From Candidatus Eiseniibacteriota bacterium (GTDB taxonomy: Bacteria; Eisenbacteria; RBG-16-71-46; CAIMUX01; VGJL01): a stretch of DNA of 64,000 nucleotides. The translations under genes were made by a program, and so were the position numbers. The stretch covers positions 192,001 through 256,000 of the forward strand of contig JBHGAY010000002.1 in assembly GCA_041946735.1 (NCBI GenBank), in the 5' to 3' direction. Under the pieces are notes generated by a model. That model saw nothing but the letters and a program-made list of their open reading frames with translations. It did not search any database and was not told where the DNA came from. This document shows positions 21,566 through 37,200 of the stretch, piece after piece. The stretch's first letter is position 1. Each line of letters starts with the position of its first letter.

Positions 21566-21603
21566 AAAAAGAACGACTCCCGCGCGGTGCGCAGGAGTCA
21601 TCG
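21566..21603 (-). terminator. Intrinsic terminator forming the riboswitch expression platform
   Basis: Minus strand GAUGACUCCUGCGC-ACC-GCGCGGGAGUCGUU followed by CUUUUU; the 5' arm overlaps the aptamer 3' end. Confidence 0.8.
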
Positions 21604-21642
21604 GCCCTTGCAGTCGGGCGGTTACGGCGAACTCCATCGCCC
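21591..21642 (-). promoter_or_regulatory. Fluoride (crcB) riboswitch aptamer
   Basis: Minus strand GGCGATGGAGTTCGCC-gtaaccgccc...gggcc-GATGACTCCTG matches the fluoride riboswitch consensus; directly upstream of DUF190-crcB. Confidence 0.93.
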
Positions 21643-21681
21643 TCTGTAGATTTCCGCTTCCGAGCGACGCGGTCGTCTAGA

Positions 21682-29797: not shown

Positions 29798-30817
29798 TCA
29801 GCGCCCTTCCGCGCGCTGGGCGAGTGCCGTCCGGAGGAACGGGAGCCCCAAGATCCCGGGAAGCCAGTAGCCGCCGAGGGAATAGAGGATGCCGACGCCG
29901 AGCGAGACGGCGGAGGCGGAAACGGGGGCCATGAGGCGGATGAGCGCCGCATCCCGCGTCCCCATTCCCGCGAGCGTCACGGGAAGCAGGCCGACGAAGA
30001 TGGCGGCGGGCAGGGCGGCCAGCACCGGACCGAACGGCGTGGGGCCGCGGAGGCTCACGTAGAAGAGCCAGGTCTGCACGACGCTCGCGAGCCAGTTCGC
30101 GAGCGTCAACAGCAGCACCGGCGCGAGCAGGGCGGGCCGCCCGAGCAGGAGGCGGAGCGCTTGCAGGAGCCGGTCCACCTTCGGCCGCAGCTTGCGTGGG
30201 ACCGGCAGGCGGATCGTCAGAAGCGCGACGGTCCCGGCCAGACCGAGGACGAAGAGGCCCCCGGAGGCGAGCGCCAGCGTGTTCCATCCGCGCATCCAGG
30301 AGCCCGCGAGGCAGAAGGCGAGGAGAGTCAGGACGTCGAGGAGCCTCTCGGCCAGCACCGAACCGAGAACCGTGCTGACCGGCGCGCGGCCTCGCAGGAA
30401 GTACGCCTTCGCGAGATCGCTCCCTTTGGAGGGAGTGAAGACGGCGAGCGTGTTGCAGGCCATGATCAGCGAGAACGCCTGGCGGCCGGGGATCGGATGG
30501 CCGAGGGCGTCCATCATCCTCTGCCAGCGCCAGGCGGAGAAGACGGGGAAGGTGGCGGTCAGCAGCAGTCCGGCGATCAACGGAGCGAGGCGCGCCGAGC
30601 CGAGCAGCTCGAAGACGCGCGAGAACGAGACGTTGCGGAAGAGCAGGTAGAAGACGAGCAGAGTGACCAGGACGAGGACGGCCATCCGCACGACGTCGCG
30701 AAGGCTCGAGCGAATTCCGGGCGGCGGCGGAGTCTCGGGGACGCTGGATGGCGCGGCCGCCGGCGGCCGCGTCGCAGGCGCCGCACCGTCTCGCGTCGCG
30801 CCCGGCGATCCGCTCAC
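29798..30817 (-). CDS. Lysylphosphatidylglycerol-synthase-TM / flippase-like membrane protein (UPF0104)
   Basis: AWRW, TPSKGSDLAKAY, ERLLDVL, LPVTLAGMGTRD; GTGA overlap with the upstream gene. Confidence 0.82.
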   Translation of the reverse strand: MSGSPGATRDGAAPATRPPAAAPSSVPETPPPPGIRSSLRDVVRMAVLVLVTLLVFYLLFRNVSFSRVFELLGSARLAPLIAGLLLTATFPVFSAWRWQRMMDALGHPIPGRQAFSLIMACNTLAVFTPSKGSDLAKAYFLRGRAPVSTVLGSVLAERLLDVLTLLAFCLAGSWMRGWNTLALASGGLFVLGLAGTVALLTIRLPVPRKLRPKVDRLLQALRLLLGRPALLAPVLLLTLANWLASVVQTWLFYVSLRGPTPFGPVLAALPAAIFVGLLPVTLAGMGTRDAALIRLMAPVSASAVSLGVGILYSLGGYWLPGILGLPFLRTALAQRAEGR

Positions 30818-32589
30818 GCGTCTCCCCCGCTCTCGAGCGATTGCCGTCCCGTCGTCAGATCGAACGTCCTGCGGACCTCGATCGATCCCGTCCGATTCAG
30901 GCGCTCGACGTCGCTCGCCGCGAGGTAGCTGCCCCGGGCGCGCAGCTCGTAGCGCTGGAAATAGCGGGACTGCGGCACGTAGCGAACCGACCAGTCGTCT
31001 CCGATCTTTACTTCGCGGAAGGCGGGCCCGCCGCGGCGCTCGATCCGGTCGGTCACGGTCATCCGCTCCCCCTCGAAGCGGATCGTCCGCCGGAAATGGA
31101 CCGGAGCGCTCCCGCTCTTCGTCATCAGGAGCTTTCGGATCCATCCCTTGATCCGGTAGGCGGTCCCGGTGTGGGCGCCGGCGACGAGCATGAACATGCG
31201 GAAGCCGATCATCGTGAGCGGCGTGAACAGCTTCGAGACGACGTAGTGCATCTCCCCTTCGACTTCGAGCTGGTCGCTCTCCGCGATGGCCTGATGCTTC
31301 GGATCGATCCACTGCGAGGTGAGGACCTTCCCGTTCGCCATTCGCGCGAGGATGCCGCAATCGCTCAGGATCGACGTCTCGGTCGCGGGCTGATAGACGC
31401 GGATCGTCCCGCCCTTCGCGAGGTTCGTGGTGACGTAGGCGCTCGCCGTGCGTCGCGCCTCCATGCGGGAACCGGGCCAGTACTTCCGGAACGGCGCACC
31501 GCGCGCCGGGAGAACCGGCAAGCTGCCTGCTCGCGGCTTCCAGTCGATCCACGACAGAAGCAGCTCCGGAATCCTGTAGAGGAAGTAGCGATCCTCCTGG
31601 ATTTCGGGAGGAACGAGCCGCGCCGACCACAGCGCCTCGAGCATCGTCTCGGCCACAGCCGCGGCAACCGGATTCTCCGGCGCGAACAGCTCGAATCCGT
31701 GGGGATAGAAGTGGAGGGTCTGGCGGCTCCCCATCGATCCGCCGAGGCTCTCCCCCGGATAGACGAAGTAGGAGAGGTACTCGATCGCCTTGGCGCAGAC
31801 CTCTTCGATCCGCTCATCGGTGTAGCGCTTGCGCAGCTTTCCGAGGAACGACACGGTCGCCGAGAGATAGCCGAGATCGGCGCCGTCGTACTCCAGGCAC
31901 CAGCCTTCGGGATTGCAGTAGCGCAGGAAGTCGTCGAGCCGGACGTGGAAGCCTTCGAGCAGCTTCGGGTCGCGAAGCAGATCGTAGGCTTCGTAGATCG
32001 GCAGGACGGCCATCGCATGGTGATTGGCGAGAACTCCGGGCTCGTCGTACTTCGCGAGGAATCGCGCGGCGCGCGCGACGCAGGAGAGGAACCGTTCCCG
32101 CAGCTCCTTCGGGACGTTGGGCTCGATGCGACGATACGAATCGGCCATCGCATAGACGAGGAATCCGGTCGGGCCCGCCCACCCGCGCTCGTTGGGATAG
32201 AACTCGTCGAACGATCCATCCGGCCTCTGGATCTTCGTCCAGTACTCCATGGCTGCGAGGGTCCACAGCAGGATCTTGGGATTGCCGAGATACGGATTGT
32301 CCGGGAACGGCGTGGCGTAGGCGAGCGCGAGGGAATGGACGCCGAACTGCGCGATCGAGGAGGGGAAGTCGACGGTCCGGCAAAGCCAGTATTCCCGATG
32401 GAAGCAGCCGTAAGTGCGGGAGAACTCGTTTCGATCCTGCAGGGAGAGCAGCCGCGGAATCTGCGCGAGCGCGCGGTCGGAATAGGCGCGGCGCAGCTCT
32501 TCCCCGCGAGGCCGGCTCGCCGTCCTCTCGGGCGGGAGCGCCCCCTGCTGCGCGTCTTCGTCGACGCGTCGATCGGGCGGCACGATCAC
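30814..32589 (-). CDS. Conserved hypothetical protein, possible (alpha/alpha)-toroid / heparinase-like enzyme
   Basis: 591-aa ORF with normal composition; QRPDGSFDEFYP, EGWCLEYDGADLGY, GGSMGSR; coupled to the flippase-like gene. Confidence 0.65.
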   Translation of the reverse strand: MIVPPDRRVDEDAQQGALPPERTASRPRGEELRRAYSDRALAQIPRLLSLQDRNEFSRTYGCFHREYWLCRTVDFPSSIAQFGVHSLALAYATPFPDNPYLGNPKILLWTLAAMEYWTKIQRPDGSFDEFYPNERGWAGPTGFLVYAMADSYRRIEPNVPKELRERFLSCVARAARFLAKYDEPGVLANHHAMAVLPIYEAYDLLRDPKLLEGFHVRLDDFLRYCNPEGWCLEYDGADLGYLSATVSFLGKLRKRYTDERIEEVCAKAIEYLSYFVYPGESLGGSMGSRQTLHFYPHGFELFAPENPVAAAVAETMLEALWSARLVPPEIQEDRYFLYRIPELLLSWIDWKPRAGSLPVLPARGAPFRKYWPGSRMEARRTASAYVTTNLAKGGTIRVYQPATETSILSDCGILARMANGKVLTSQWIDPKHQAIAESDQLEVEGEMHYVVSKLFTPLTMIGFRMFMLVAGAHTGTAYRIKGWIRKLLMTKSGSAPVHFRRTIRFEGERMTVTDRIERRGGPAFREVKIGDDWSVRYVPQSRYFQRYELRARGSYLAASDVERLNRTGSIEVRRTFDLTTGRQSLESGGDA

Positions 32590-32825
32590 GATCTCGACCT
32601 CCTCTACGACTTCGGTTCTCGGGTTCGCTCGACGGGGCTGCTACGGCCCCGGCAGCCGCGCCGTTTCAACGCCGGAGACCGGCGGGCGGCCTCGATCGCA
32701 GCGACCCGACCGATCGTAGCAGCACCGGAGCTTGTTGTCGTCTCGCCGCTTGCGCGCCCTTCACTCCGCGCCAACTCCGGTCCTTCTCGTCCAAATCCGC
32801 CGAGCGTTCGTCCGGCTATCATGAA

Positions 32826-32882
32826 GTAATCAAGATTACGAAATAAAAACTTCTTGACCCTTCCCGCACCCTGTCGCATAGT
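32826..32882 (+). promoter_or_regulatory. Sigma70-type promoter with AT-rich UP element
   Basis: TTGACC (32854-32859), 17 nt, CATAGT (32877-32882); upstream gaaataaaaac tract and GTAATC-aa-GATTAC dyad (32826-32839). Confidence 0.65.
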
Positions 32883-32888
32883 GACATT

Positions 32889-33058
32889 GAGGGTCGTGAT
32901 CGGCCCAACGGTTTCGGGACCCGGCAAGCCGGAACAACCCGGAGACGAGAAGGTGGGGCAAGTCCCCACCCTTGCCCGTGTCACCTTTTGCGGCCAAAGG
33001 TGGTGCGGGCATCTCTTTGGCGCCCCGAATGGTTCGGCCATTCGGGGCGCGATCTTTC
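32889..33058 (+). ncRNA. Candidate stand-alone structured non-coding RNA
   Basis: Five consecutive hairpins starting at the predicted +1; G-U wobbles work only on the + strand; no credible ORF follows and the next gene is convergent. Confidence 0.55.
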
Positions 33059-33120
33059 GGGGCGCCTGCCTGGGCGGCCGCCTCCAGTTCGTGGCGGCCT
33101 TGCCCGGCACGCGAGCGCCC

Positions 33121-34215
33121 CTATTCGCGGGGATCCGGAGCCAGGGTTTCCTCGCCCGTCCACGTTCCGTCCGCCGCTCGAGGCGTCGCACCGGCGGCCG
33201 GTCCAGGCATCGTACCGGCCGGGTCTGAGCGCATCCCGTCGATCCGCTTCTCGATCCCCCCGCTCTCGATGACGAATCCTGCAGGCGGGGCCGCATCCTG
33301 CCAGGCCTGGCGCTCTTCCTCGGCGAGGCCCCAGCCATCCGGATGGAGCCGATAGCGAGCCAGGCGGCGGGAAAGATCCGCCTTCCGCTCCGCGACCGAA
33401 GCGGCGCGCCAGCGCGTCGCGAGAGCGGGCGACAGGATGCGGACGAGCCGCCCCGCCGTACAGACGACCGCGCGAGGATCGAGATCGGCGACCGTCCAGG
33501 CGCGCCGACTCCTGTGCGCGGCGGCGGCCAGCGTCCCGCTCCCGCAGGTCCAATCCGCGACTCGGTCCCCCTCGTCCGTGAACGCTTCGATCAAACGGAC
33601 GGCCAGGGCTTCCGGCTTCTGCATGGGATAGCCGAGCCGCTCGCTCGAGTCGGCGGGAAGGAACGGGATCTCCCACACGTCGTCGGCCCACGCGTAGCGG
33701 TACCAGCCCCGACGATCGCGATGCTCCTCGACCCCTCGACGGTTCGCGCGGTGCGCCAGGTAGCGCTTCTCCCGGAAGGCGTGGAAGGTGTGCGCTGGGC
33801 CGTTGCGCCAGACCAGGAGCGTGTCGTGCTTCCAGGCGAAGCGGTCCCGCGCCACGCCGCCGCTCCGGTAATGCCACACGATCTCGTTGAGGAATGCGGC
33901 CGGGCCGAGGCGTTCCTCGAGTGACACCCGCACGAACGGCGCGAGGCGAGGATCGAGATGGACCACCAGGATCCCGCCGGGACGAAGCGCCTCGATCCCA
34001 CGCTCGAGCCTCGGGATCCAGCACTCCAACCACTTGCCGCGATTCGAGCCGTCCTGCAGCGGGCTCTCCACGCGACCGAGACCGAATCGAAAGCGCTGGG
34101 CGCGTCCCGTCCCGAAAGGAGGATCGACGTAGAGCAGCGCCAGGCTTCCCCGCTCGACCGACTCGCAGGCTTGCAGGAACTCGGCATGGAGCAGGACGTT
34201 GGGGGCGGTGTCCAT
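33121..34215 (-). CDS. Orphan N6-adenine/N4-cytosine DNA methyltransferase (beta class)
   Basis: Motif IV LLYVDPPF, NEIVWHY, KHDTLL, DVWEIP, YPMQKPEAL, variant motif I DWTCGSGT. Confidence 0.85.
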   Translation of the reverse strand: MDTAPNVLLHAEFLQACESVERGSLALLYVDPPFGTGRAQRFRFGLGRVESPLQDGSNRGKWLECWIPRLERGIEALRPGGILVVHLDPRLAPFVRVSLEERLGPAAFLNEIVWHYRSGGVARDRFAWKHDTLLVWRNGPAHTFHAFREKRYLAHRANRRGVEEHRDRRGWYRYAWADDVWEIPFLPADSSERLGYPMQKPEALAVRLIEAFTDEGDRVADWTCGSGTLAAAAHRSRRAWTVADLDPRAVVCTAGRLVRILSPALATRWRAASVAERKADLSRRLARYRLHPDGWGLAEEERQAWQDAAPPAGFVIESGGIEKRIDGMRSDPAGTMPGPAAGATPRAADGTWTGEETLAPDPRE

Positions 34216-34308
34216 GGCGTCGTTCTTACGCCGCTCCCGGCCGCCTGTCCATCGCCGCTCTCCGCGAGACCGCCGGCCTTGTGTCACACGCCGGTCCGTC
34301 ACGGTTCG

Positions 34309-34338: not shown

Positions 34339-34412
34339 CCGCGCGATTCGCGGCGTTACCGGATCGCTTGGGGTGGGGGCGAACGGGGCCGAGTCGCGGT
34401 GGGGGGAGGCGC

Positions 34413-35702
34413 ATGGGACAGGACCGGCTCTGGGCAGACCCGCATCCTCGCGGAGCGCGGCTCGGTCGCGATTGCATCCTTCTCCCCGGGATTCTCCTCT
34501 CGATCGTCCTTCTTTTCGCCGCCCCCGCGGCTCGCCCCGCCGTCGCGCAAACGGTCTCCGGGACGAGCGGCGAGCCGGCGCCCGCCATGCCCCCGGCCTC
34601 CTCCACCCCCACGGCTCCCGCCGCGACGCCGCGCGCTCCCGCGGACCTGCGCGCGATCGACACGCCCAACGACCGAGGCGAGAGCATCGACCTCACCTGG
34701 CAGGCAAGCCCCGACGAGGCGAGCGCGGTCACGCTGTACGAGATCCAGAGGTCGACCTCTCCCGAGGGACCGTTCGAGACGGTGGGGCAGATTCCGGCGG
34801 GGACGACCAGCTACACCGACAACTCCGTGAAGGACGAGACGGGCTACTACTACCGGATCGTGTCGGTCGGCAGTGGCTCCGGCCCTTGGGAGACCACGCC
34901 GGCCGTGGGGCCGGCGACGTCCCATGGGCAGTGGTTCGACGCCCGCAAGCTCCCCACGCTGCTTCTCACCTTCGCCTTCTGCGTGGCGGTCGTGTTCCTG
35001 ATCGGGCAAGCGCGCCGCGGGCGGCCGTTCTACATTCGGCCCATCCCCGGCCTGGCCGCGGTGGACGAGGCGATCGGGCGCGCAACGGAGATGGGCAAGC
35101 CGATCCTCTTCGTCTCGGGCCTCGGGACGGCAGGCGACGTCGCCACCCTTGCCGCCTTCACGCTGCTCGGGCGCGTCGCCCGGCGCACGGCCGAGTACCA
35201 GACCCAGGTGATCGTCCCCTGCTACGACCCGATCGTGATGACGATCTCGCAGGAGATCGTGAAGTCGTCGTACCTCGACGCCGGCCGGCCGGAGCTCTAC
35301 CGCCAGGACGACATCTTCTTCGTGACGCAGGACCAGTTCCCCTTCACGGCCGCCGTCAACGGCATCATGCTCCGCGACCGGCCCGCCACGAACTTCTACA
35401 TCGGCAAGTTCTACGCGGAGAGCCTGGTTCTCGCAGAGACCGGGAACATTGCCGGCTCCATCCAGATCGCGGGAACCGACGAGATGACCCAGATCCCGTT
35501 CTTCGTCGCGGCGTGCGACTACACCCTGATCGGAGAGGAGCTCTACGCCTCCAGCGCCTACCTCTCTCAGGAGCCGCCGCTGCTCGGAACCTTGAAAGCG
35601 CAGGACTGGGGAAAGGCCCTGGCCGCGTTTCTGATCGTGGCCGGAGCGATTCTCGCCGCCTTCGGGCAGAGCTGGTTCGTCCGGTTCTTCCAGGTTCAGT
35701 AG
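34413..35702 (+). CDS. Fibronectin type III domain plus DUF6754-like membrane protein
   Basis: Signal-like N-terminus; FN3 (IDLTWQAS..YEIQRS..YTD..YYYRIVSV); TM; IRPIPGLAAVDEAIGRATEMGKP, AESLVLAETG, ACDYTLIGEELYA; C-terminal TM. Confidence 0.8.
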   Translation: MGQDRLWADPHPRGARLGRDCILLPGILLSIVLLFAAPAARPAVAQTVSGTSGEPAPAMPPASSTPTAPAATPRAPADLRAIDTPNDRGESIDLTWQASPDEASAVTLYEIQRSTSPEGPFETVGQIPAGTTSYTDNSVKDETGYYYRIVSVGSGSGPWETTPAVGPATSHGQWFDARKLPTLLLTFAFCVAVVFLIGQARRGRPFYIRPIPGLAAVDEAIGRATEMGKPILFVSGLGTAGDVATLAAFTLLGRVARRTAEYQTQVIVPCYDPIVMTISQEIVKSSYLDAGRPELYRQDDIFFVTQDQFPFTAAVNGIMLRDRPATNFYIGKFYAESLVLAETGNIAGSIQIAGTDEMTQIPFFVAACDYTLIGEELYASSAYLSQEPPLLGTLKAQDWGKALAAFLIVAGAILAAFGQSWFVRFFQVQ

Positions 35703-35751
35703 TTCGAGGCGCGCGCAAGGAACACGAGAGGGAAGGAAGGGCTCACCGACG

Positions 35752-36366
35752 ATGCGACGCGGGCTGCCGAAGCTGATCACCGCAATCACCGGGCTGTTCC
35801 TGGCGATCCAGTACTTCAGCCCCCACAAGTTCTCGGAGAAGTTCTTCGAAACGGCGCTCGACTGGCTGATCATCATCGGCATCTTCTCGATCATTCTCGG
35901 AATCGCGAGCTTGTCGAAGCAGCACCTGTCGAAGATCCAGCGCAAGGAGGGGGGATCGTTCAACAGCAGCGTGCTCCTGGCCGGCCTCGTGTTCATGATC
36001 CTCGCCGGCTTTCTCGGAGGAACGGGGGAAGGCTCGCTGTTCCTGCAGGGATACAACGGCATTCTCAATCCCGTCACGTCGACGATGTTCGCGCTGCTCG
36101 CCTTCTACATCGCCTCGGCCGCCTACCGGGCGTTTCGGGCGCGCACTGTCATCGCGACGATCCTGCTCGTGAGCGCCGTCATCGTGATGATCGGCCGTGT
36201 CCCGGCCGGGGAGGCGATGATCCCGGGGATCGCGAAGGCTTCCGACTGGCTGCTCAACGTCCCGAACATGGCCGCGAAACGGGCGATCGCGATCGGCCTC
36301 GGGCTCGGCGGCAGCGCGACGGCGCTGAAGGTCGTGCTCGGCATCGAAGCGCCGCATCTTCGTTAG
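35752..36366 (+). CDS. Uncharacterised multi-pass membrane protein
   Basis: About 6 hydrophobic segments; STMFALLAFYIASAAYRAFR, AAKRAIAIG. Confidence 0.85.
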   Translation: MRRGLPKLITAITGLFLAIQYFSPHKFSEKFFETALDWLIIIGIFSIILGIASLSKQHLSKIQRKEGGSFNSSVLLAGLVFMILAGFLGGTGEGSLFLQGYNGILNPVTSTMFALLAFYIASAAYRAFRARTVIATILLVSAVIVMIGRVPAGEAMIPGIAKASDWLLNVPNMAAKRAIAIGLGLGGSATALKVVLGIEAPHLR

Positions 36367-36378
36367 GGAGGGGAGCCG

Positions 36379-37200
36379 ATGGCGAAGTTCGACATCACGC
36401 ACGTCGACCGGCGGCTTATCTACGGCATCATCTTCCTCGCCGTCCTCGTGCCGCTCTTCATTCCGGCGCCGAAGTCGATTCGCATCACTCCCGAGGTTCG
36501 GGTGGTGTACGACCGGATCGAGGCGCTCCCTCGCGGCTCGATCGTCATGATCCCGGCGGAATACGATCCGTCGATGAGCGCCGAGCTCTCTCCCTTGACG
36601 ATCGCGGTGCTGCGGCAATGTTTCTCCCGTGACCTTCGCGTTCTGATGACGTGCCTGATGTCGAACGGGGTCTCCCTCGTCGAGAGCGAGCTGACGCGGG
36701 TGGCACGGGAGTACGGAAAGACCTACGGGGTCGACTACGTCTACCTCGGCTACAAGCCCTACCCCGGGGTCGTGATCATGGCGATGGGAGAGGACTTCCG
36801 GAATCCGTTCCCCACCGACTACTACGATCACCCGCTCGACACCCTTCCGATGATGAAGGGGGTCAAGAACTACCAGAACGTCGCGCTCGTGCTGACGATC
36901 AATGCCACGAGCGGAATCGACTACTGGATCACCTACGGGCAGGGACGGTACAAGTTCCCGCTCGCCGTCGGCTCCTCCGCGGTCATGGCCCCGAACTACT
37001 ACAACTACCTGCAGTCCGGCCAGCTCTTCGGCCTGATCGGCGGGCTTCGCGGAGCGGCCGAGTACGAAGAGCTGATCGACAAGCCGGGAACGGCCGTCCG
37101 GGGAATGTTCGTGCAATCGGTCGCGCACCTCGTGATCGTCGGCCTGATCGTGGTCGGCAACGTGAGCTTCATCATCGAGCGCCGGCGGAGGAGAGGATAG
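36379..37200 (+). CDS. Uncharacterised membrane-anchored protein (TM, alpha/beta domain, TM)
   Basis: DRRLIY, YGVDYVYLGY, YLQSGQLFGLIGGLRGAAEYE, C-terminal TM ending GN; GGAGG RBS. Confidence 0.85.
   Translation: MAKFDITHVDRRLIYGIIFLAVLVPLFIPAPKSIRITPEVRVVYDRIEALPRGSIVMIPAEYDPSMSAELSPLTIAVLRQCFSRDLRVLMTCLMSNGVSLVESELTRVAREYGKTYGVDYVYLGYKPYPGVVIMAMGEDFRNPFPTDYYDHPLDTLPMMKGVKNYQNVALVLTINATSGIDYWITYGQGRYKFPLAVGSSAVMAPNYYNYLQSGQLFGLIGGLRGAAEYEELIDKPGTAVRGMFVQSVAHLVIVGLIVVGNVSFIIERRRRRG

Follow-up and report, generated by a model that had tools for sequence, protein, structure and literature searches.

Introduction

RsaE and RoxS of the Firmicutes are trans-encoded sRNAs with unpaired stretches rich in C and U, and they function independently of Hfq. 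A different mode of recognition is known from CopA and RNA I, plasmid antisense RNAs that make a kissing contact from an apical loop of 6-7 nt. Our search of the literature found no regulatory RNA specific to Candidatus Eisenbacteria. The present work concerns one locus in the window, by which we mean the whole 64-kb stretch of DNA analyzed, from a genome (G000 below) of this phylum of uncultured soil bacteria. Throughout, family 1 denotes the family to which this genome belongs, and family 2 denotes a second family of the same order.

We conclude with high confidence that the locus is a stand-alone RNA gene on the plus strand. It shares with the RsaE/RoxS-type sRNAs a promoter-to-terminator unit of ~75-130 nt, a protective 5' hairpin, a C/U-rich segment ahead of the terminator and a host without detectable Hfq. 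A preliminary description of the locus, made from the DNA letters, had proposed a possibly undescribed sRNA, and the analysis reported here arrives at a conserved single-copy RNA gene present in ten genomes, with no Rfam family at threshold. Taken as a whole, the reading that we favor, and which we regard as probable, is that of an uncatalogued promoter-to-terminator family of trans-acting sRNAs that function without Hfq or ProQ and recognize their partner through a loop or a linker.

Results

Promoter and layout of the element

A consensus scan of positions 32000-34000 returned a single promoter-like site, TTGACC-17-CATAGT on the plus strand (shuffle average 0.2). The same scan returned one terminator-like site, at 32973-33011 on the plus strand and followed by TCTCTTT, which corresponds to the hairpin designated H4. 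The features of the element are the following.

32816..32853, plus strand: AT-rich UP-like tract, lying 5' of the -35 box and recognized by its GC content
32854..32882, plus strand: predicted sigma-70-type promoter, TTGACC-17-CATAGT, from the consensus scan and presumably active
32889..33019, plus strand: predicted sRNA transcript of ~131 nt, with +1 placed by the spacing from the -10 box and the 3' end by the U-tract
32891..32906, plus strand: H1, 5'-terminal hairpin GGGTCG-TGAT-CGGCCC, family 1 only
32911..32946, plus strand: H2, long hairpin with a variable apex, family 1 only
32952..32970, plus strand: H3, 5' hairpin of the core, GGTGGGG-CAAGT-CCCCACC, a covarying helix
32971..32973, plus strand: unpaired C/U-rich linker CUU (CCCUU when the end of H3 is included), consensus CCYUY
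32974..33010, plus strand: H4, 15-bp intrinsic-terminator hairpin, from the terminator scan and covariation
32989..32995, plus strand: apical loop of H4, UGCGGCC, invariant across the 10 copies of both families
33011..33019, plus strand: U-rich tail ATCTCTTTG, a T-rich tail being present in 10 of 10 copies
33020..33050, no strand assigned: H5, perfect 13-bp hairpin, found in this genome only and outside the conserved RNA

The conspicuous AT-rich patch to which the preliminary description had drawn attention is borne out, as positions 32816-32855 constitute the lowest-GC 40-mer in the entire 64-kb window (0.25 vs 0.68). The GC content of the 40 nt that precede the -35 box is 0.23-0.33 in the five family-1 copies of the element and 0.38-0.60 in the five family-2 copies. 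The promoter TTGACC-17-CATAGT, with +1 near 32889, reads in the sequence exactly as had been described, and boxes of the same type recur at the same distance in all ten copies. The -35 box is of the TTGAC type throughout, with the variant GTGACG in G002. The -10 box, 17-18 nt after it, is in every copy of the -ATnnT type, with A at position 2 and T at position 6. In the family-2 promoters TTGACC, TTGACG or TTGACT is followed after 17-18 nt by TACGTT, TACTTT, ATAAAT or TAGCGT, and the RNA follows directly.

Distribution among relatives

With 32826-33070 as the query, BLAST searches of 60 relatives yielded significant matches in four of the five same-family genomes. The matches covered query positions 81-194 only, which correspond to 32906-33019 of the window; the one family-1 relative that gave no match (G001) is 75% complete. 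All five family-1 genomes that carry the RNA have the same 28-mer over the H4 loop and 3' arm. The other three families of the order, represented by 29 genomes, lack it even when up to three mismatches are allowed. A covariance model built from the H3-H4 part (R1) recovered four further copies, all in family 2, at 38.8-49.5 bits. All other matches of R1 scored at most 27.6 bits, and those that were inspected (L039-L043) lay in stretches unlike the element. The model was rebuilt from nine copies (R2), and it matched 10 of the 35 genomes of the order. Family 1 contributed this genome and four of five others, and family 2 contributed five of 13; the 15 genomes of family 3 and the single one of family 4 gave no match. 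Across 151 sampled genomes of the class, R2 found nothing beyond these ten, with one match per genome. All ten carriers are MAGs of Candidatus Eisenbacteria from two families of one order. The search of related MAGs with a covariation check, which the preliminary description had recommended, thus places the element in ten genomes, with compensatory changes in H3 and H4.

Public sequence collections were scanned with shorter probes. A 21-mer scan of public genome contigs gave nine loci, three of them with the whole element. The loci in Alloalcanivorax, Halioglobus, Rickettsiales, Schumannella, Roseivivax and Solirubrobacteraceae hold the 21-mer only, within unrelated DNA, and were treated as chance. 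A 25-mer scan of metagenome contigs gave two contigs, identical to each other in the stretch shown and to the G002 copy, which added no diversity.

Neighboring genes and independence of the RNA

Three units flank the element in the window.

30814-32589, minus strand: gene for a 591-aa protein, divergent to the sRNA, with no Pfam or NCBIfam match
33121-34302, minus strand: orphan N6/N4 DNA methyltransferase (PF01555, E 3e-25), convergent to the sRNA
~34400-37197, plus strand: conserved membrane operon of three genes, the first encoding a DUF6754 protein (E 1e-116)

The 591-aa gene is syntenic in four family-1 relatives from related genera, at 47-72% identity. The other two genes of the operon matched no family above the cut-off. 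Only here and in G004 (59% identity) does the methyltransferase separate the sRNA terminator from the DUF6754 operon. It is absent from that place in G005, in which the same-strand DUF6754 operon starts ~120 nt past the terminator, whereas here the operon begins only after the methyltransferase; other DNA follows the RNA in G002 and G003. The stretch that follows the sRNA can thus be described as a variable slot. The 3' part of the RNA was considered as an integration site for this slot and rejected, its 28-mer having no second copy at up to three mismatches.

The downstream gene is convergent in two of five family-1 loci and in three of the four family-2 loci examined. By tblastn, none of the six neighbors in the window was found in four family-2 loci, and the left neighbor in family 2 is a divergent UbiE-like methyltransferase. 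The order in these loci (L035-L038) is a zinc-type dehydrogenase-like ORF (plus strand), a UbiE/COQ5 methyltransferase (minus strand) and the sRNA (plus strand). In two of them the downstream protein has a PEP-CTERM-like tail, recognized by eye.

These arrangements bear on the possibility that the RNA is a cis-acting leader or attenuator of the downstream same-strand DUF6754 operon, with the methyltransferase of this genome as a later insertion. The proximity of the DUF6754 homologue to the terminator in G005, on the same strand, would fit such a role, as would the order of 591-aa gene, RNA and operon, which is loosely kept in family 1. Yet the gap between RNA and operon is filled by the convergent methyltransferase (G000 and G004) or by other DNA (G002 and G003), and 28 nt of the RNA are invariant all the same. 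The neighbors in family 2 are unrelated to those of family 1. The most conserved part of the element, moreover, is the terminator; an aptamer-like domain is absent, and the 5' domain is variable or missing. We regard a leader as very unlikely. Because the neighbors differ between the families and the downstream gene is often convergent, the RNA travels as its own unit rather than as a leader. The same had been proposed earlier from the orientation of the flanking genes, and it is now upheld by the element's own promoter, by the different neighbors in the two families and by convergent downstream genes in several loci.

Folding, covariation and strand

The segment 32886-33062 folds at -94.7 kcal/mol, compared to a shuffle mean of -75.1 (z -4.28), and none of 200 shuffles was as good. 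The fold includes H1, H3, H4 and H5 as they had been described, in agreement with the nearly complete folding claimed for this stretch. The minus strand also folds unusually well (z -4.83), so that the fold of a single sequence does not decide the strand.

Comparison of the copies was more informative. In a MAFFT alignment of nine copies (A4), 96.3% of the cells of H4 are paired, compared to 37-55% when the partners are slid. Both partners have changed in four pairs of H4, and in four more a change of one partner leaves a wobble-compatible pair. The share of paired cells was reached by one of 500 shuffles. In a ten-copy alignment, which was fitted to the model and is for that reason biased towards the structure, 97.7% of the cells are paired, nine of 22 pairs are changed on both sides, and none of 500 shuffles was as high. 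Covariation within the five family-1 sequences alone is indistinguishable from that of shuffles (216 of 500), and the structural support thus comes from the comparison of the two families. The covariation as a whole rests on ten sequences from two related families, with one of the two alignments structure-fitted. Examples of compensation in the H4 stem are UUU/AAA to UCU/AGA, ACC/GGU to GUC/GAC and, in G029, GGUGCGGGC to GACGCGGGC.

The promoter and the T-tract lie on the plus strand in all ten copies. Furthermore, G-U pairs occupy 16 of the 135 cells of H4 in A4, and they become A-C mismatches if read on the other strand. The promoter, the T-tract and the G-U pairs across the relatives all point to the plus strand. 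The preliminary description had favored this strand as well; its promoter and G-U arguments hold in the relatives, as does the position of the T-tract, and the fold of the single sequence gives no preference.

The equal folding of the minus strand, and the presence of H4 and H5 as inverted repeats between convergent units, would also be expected of a palindrome that acts at the DNA level, or of a mere terminator (that of the convergent methyltransferase gene, for example), in either case with promoter-like sequence beside it by chance. The G-U pairs of H4 speak against both, as they are sensible only in a plus-strand RNA. So does the confinement of the T-tract to the plus strand. The promoter and H3 are, in addition, conserved together with H4 in all ten copies, including those at loci without a convergent gene. 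A palindrome or a simple terminator is on these grounds highly improbable, and we retain the plus-strand RNA gene.

A compact core with an invariant loop

The two families share a core of ~75 nt, consisting of a 5' hairpin, the linker CCYUY, the 15-bp terminator hairpin with the UGCGGCC loop, and the U-tract. The family-2 copies are of this size, ~75 nt, with a hairpin of 9-10 bp right at the 5' end, a C/U-rich linker of 4-6 nt, the 15-bp terminator hairpin and the U-tract. The family-1 copies consist of the core (H3, linker, H4 and tail) and an extra 5' domain, which in four genomes comprises H1 and H2. RNAalifold recovered all of H1-H4 in four family-1 RNAs. It predicts for H1 a helix of seven pairs, two of which are changed on both sides. 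The base helix of H2 (32914-32918 with 32938-32942) is retained in the four RNAs, while its apex is different in each. The 5' domain of the G002 copy is longer and unlike the H1/H2 of the four other family-1 genomes.

Within the core, every cell of the H3 helix is paired in the ten-copy model-fitted alignment, and four of its six pairs are changed on both sides. The loop that it carries is variable: CAAGU, CGAGU, GUAGUA or CUAGA in family 1, and of the GCCA, GAUU or CCCG type in family 2. The free variation of the H3 loop and of the H2 apex removes an earlier idea, that of a protein-binding RNA that uses repeated CAAG loops. The linker reads CCTT, CCTC, CCTTC or CTAC across the ten copies and may act as a seed. 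The conserved unpaired stretches are short overall: the loop measures 7 nt and the linker 3-5 nt. It is the UGCGGCC loop of H4 that is invariant, a feature which had not been singled out before. This invariant loop on a terminator stem is the most interesting feature of the RNA.

All five hairpins of the preliminary description are present in the sequence at the places that it gave. The last of them is specific to this genome, and the conserved RNA extends no further than the U-tract that follows H4: no relative aligns past query position 194 (33019 in the window), and none reaches H5. H5 is flanked by the sRNA terminator on one side and by the end of the convergent methyltransferase gene on the other, and it may serve as a back-up or bidirectional terminator.

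Known RNA families and coding potential

A scan of the 64-kb window with Rfam at the gathering thresholds gave no match at the element. The only above-threshold match in the window is a full-length fluoride riboswitch (RF01734, 54.2 bits) at 21585-21650 on the minus strand. A second Rfam scan, of 32600-33300 with E up to 10, gave seven weak matches, all far below threshold. The RNA family is absent from Rfam 15; the family is new, and the kind to which it belongs is an ordinary one. The preliminary description had named a match to a known Rfam family as the finding that would remove novelty, and no family reaches its threshold.

The best of the seven matches was Pxr (RF01812), a family of myxobacterial sRNAs, at 32945-33058 (21.7 bits, E 0.19). 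It was the only model to align end to end, as would be seen if the element were a divergent member of that family. The score, however, falls well short of the 80 bits required by the gathering threshold. H5, on which the alignment relies, is not conserved, and the organism belongs to another phylum. We consider membership in the Pxr family extremely improbable, and the element is treated below as a family of its own.

The 6S RNA was not among the seven matches at 32600-33300. A genuine 6S RNA (RF00013) is located elsewhere in this genome, at 40516-40694 of contig C25 (70.9 bits), and one is found in each of four relatives. A genuine small SRP RNA (RF00169, 65.8 bits) is on contig C15. The earlier judgment that the element is neither 6S nor SRP RNA is consistent with these assignments, both RNAs being encoded elsewhere in the genome and no Rfam family reaching threshold at the locus.

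The ORF at 32854-33228, which overlaps the element, gave no Pfam match. The H3 loop of one relative carries a 1-nt insertion, by which any reading frame would be broken. The substitutions track base-pairing, without codon periodicity, and conservation ends at 33019. Judged from these features of the sequence, the element is not protein-coding, and the preference of the preliminary description for a non-coding RNA over a protein from this ORF is sustained by the missing Pfam match and by the insertion.

Traces in RNA libraries

Assembled contigs from three RNA libraries of three studies and from one DNA run were compared. Each RNA library held one short contig, of 200, 159 and 151 nt, matching 32946-33019, 32901-33018 (library X13) and 32945-33019, respectively. 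The contigs are 95-99% like the core and have flanks unlike this genome, which indicates that they come from relatives. They extend 22-75 nt beyond the terminator. As assembled contigs show neither strand nor ends, and RNA libraries can contain DNA, the three contigs are a weak hint of expression. That the RNA runs do not cover the flanks carries no weight as evidence, since relatives differ from one another there.

RNA-binding proteins and candidate targets

Five genomes that carry the RNA (completeness 84-99%) were searched for the common RNA chaperones. Hfq (PF17209) was found in none of the five and ProQ likewise in none, with control genomes matched in both cases. CsrA, in contrast to these two, is encoded in all five. 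No loop of the conserved core contains a GGA motif in the ten-copy alignment.

Searches for a base-pairing partner found no target with the loop complement, the linker complement, the divergent neighbor or 7-mer enrichment. The genome contains 33 sites of TGGCCGCAA, the 9-mer complementary to the loop, which is approximately the chance expectation. The best-looking of these sites, in a signal-peptide gene of contig C38 (+6 to +15), was dropped as a conserved target, as the gene is unmatched in five relatives. The scan with the linker complement was too noisy to read. Pairing of the apical fragment with the 5' region of the divergent neighbor was no better than shuffled in all five family-1 genomes. 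The heptamer GGCCGCA ranked sixth of 140 7-mers of the same composition in crudely defined non-coding DNA (ratio 0.294, compared to a median of 0.264), which we treated as no signal. A loop-loop kissing contact inside the RNA was rejected too, the H3 loops not being complementary to UGCGGCC in the ten-copy alignment, as judged by eye.

These observations are relevant to whether the partner of the RNA is a protein. The UGCGGCC loop might dock a dedicated RNA-binding protein, which the RNA titrates or guides, with a divergent CsrA as a speculative candidate. The loop is invariant in ten of ten copies while the stem beneath it covaries, and an invariant loop suits protein recognition just as well as base-pairing, for which no target was found. 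The presence of CsrA in the five genomes tested, where Hfq and ProQ were not found, is in keeping with the proposal. According to a published survey of CsrA, a machine-learning model predicts few canonical-type CsrAs in Eisenbacteria (PMC13443453). The core, however, has one invariant loop, as opposed to the many GGA loops in known CsrA sponges, and that loop does not contain the GGA motif. No candidate protein gene is linked to the RNA, and its neighbors differ between the families. We rate a protein-binding RNA, the main rival to our reading, as unlikely, and we keep to a trans-acting sRNA that recognizes its partner through the loop or the linker.

Discussion

From the collective evidence on the ten copies, we propose the following course of events. 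The predicted RNA, ~131 nt in this genome and ~75 nt in the sister family, would be made in one order of Candidatus Eisenbacteria. Transcription would proceed from a strong sigma-70-type promoter with its AT-rich upstream tract. The transcript would begin with a hairpin at its very 5' end and would end at the intrinsic terminator H4. We infer that it regulates in trans, without the assistance of Hfq or ProQ. The invariant UGCGGCC loop, presented on the long terminator stem, would then pair with sites that contain GGCCGCA, and the linker CCYUY, which resembles an anti-Shine-Dalgarno sequence, may assist. Base-pairing through the loop or the linker is a tentative part of this proposal. A more far-reaching version holds that the UGCGGCC loop is a dedicated recognition code, either the kissing seed for a regulon or the dock of a novel RNA-binding protein; we consider it rather doubtful. 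If true, Eisenbacteria, an uncultured phylum that seems to lack Hfq and ProQ, would have in this RNA its first defined global regulator at the post-transcriptional level, and the ~75-nt form of the sister family would represent the minimal functional module.

As a kind, the RNA is unsurprising, lineage-restricted sRNAs that run from promoter to terminator being common. Its clear boundaries, compact 75-nt core and invariant loop make it ready for an Rfam-style family. The element can serve as a marker of the order in metatranscriptomes and as an entry to post-transcriptional control in a lineage without Hfq or ProQ.

The comparison with known systems sets the RNA apart from each of them in a different manner. 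In size range, and as a highly structured stand-alone gene, it is similar to the 6S and SRP RNAs, but neither architecture is present here. As a multi-hairpin sRNA that ends in a terminator, it is like Pxr (RF01812). Riboswitches and other cis-leaders differ from it in that the gene downstream of the element is not constant and that the terminator is its most conserved part. It is unlike the CsrB/RsmZ-type sponges, as the loops of its conserved core are devoid of the GGA motif, and unlike the Hfq-dependent sRNAs, as Hfq was not found in the five genomes tested. With CopA and RNA I it has in common a short loop, here invariant and placed on a long stable stem, which is the obvious recognition surface. 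Those two are cis-antisense RNAs, whereas nothing conserved is encoded opposite the present element and no complementary loop was found. The resemblance in overall design to RsaE and RoxS has its limits as well: similarity in sequence or model is absent, neither family being listed by the Rfam E-value scan, and conservation here is highest in the terminator loop UGCGGCC, in place of their C-rich loops.
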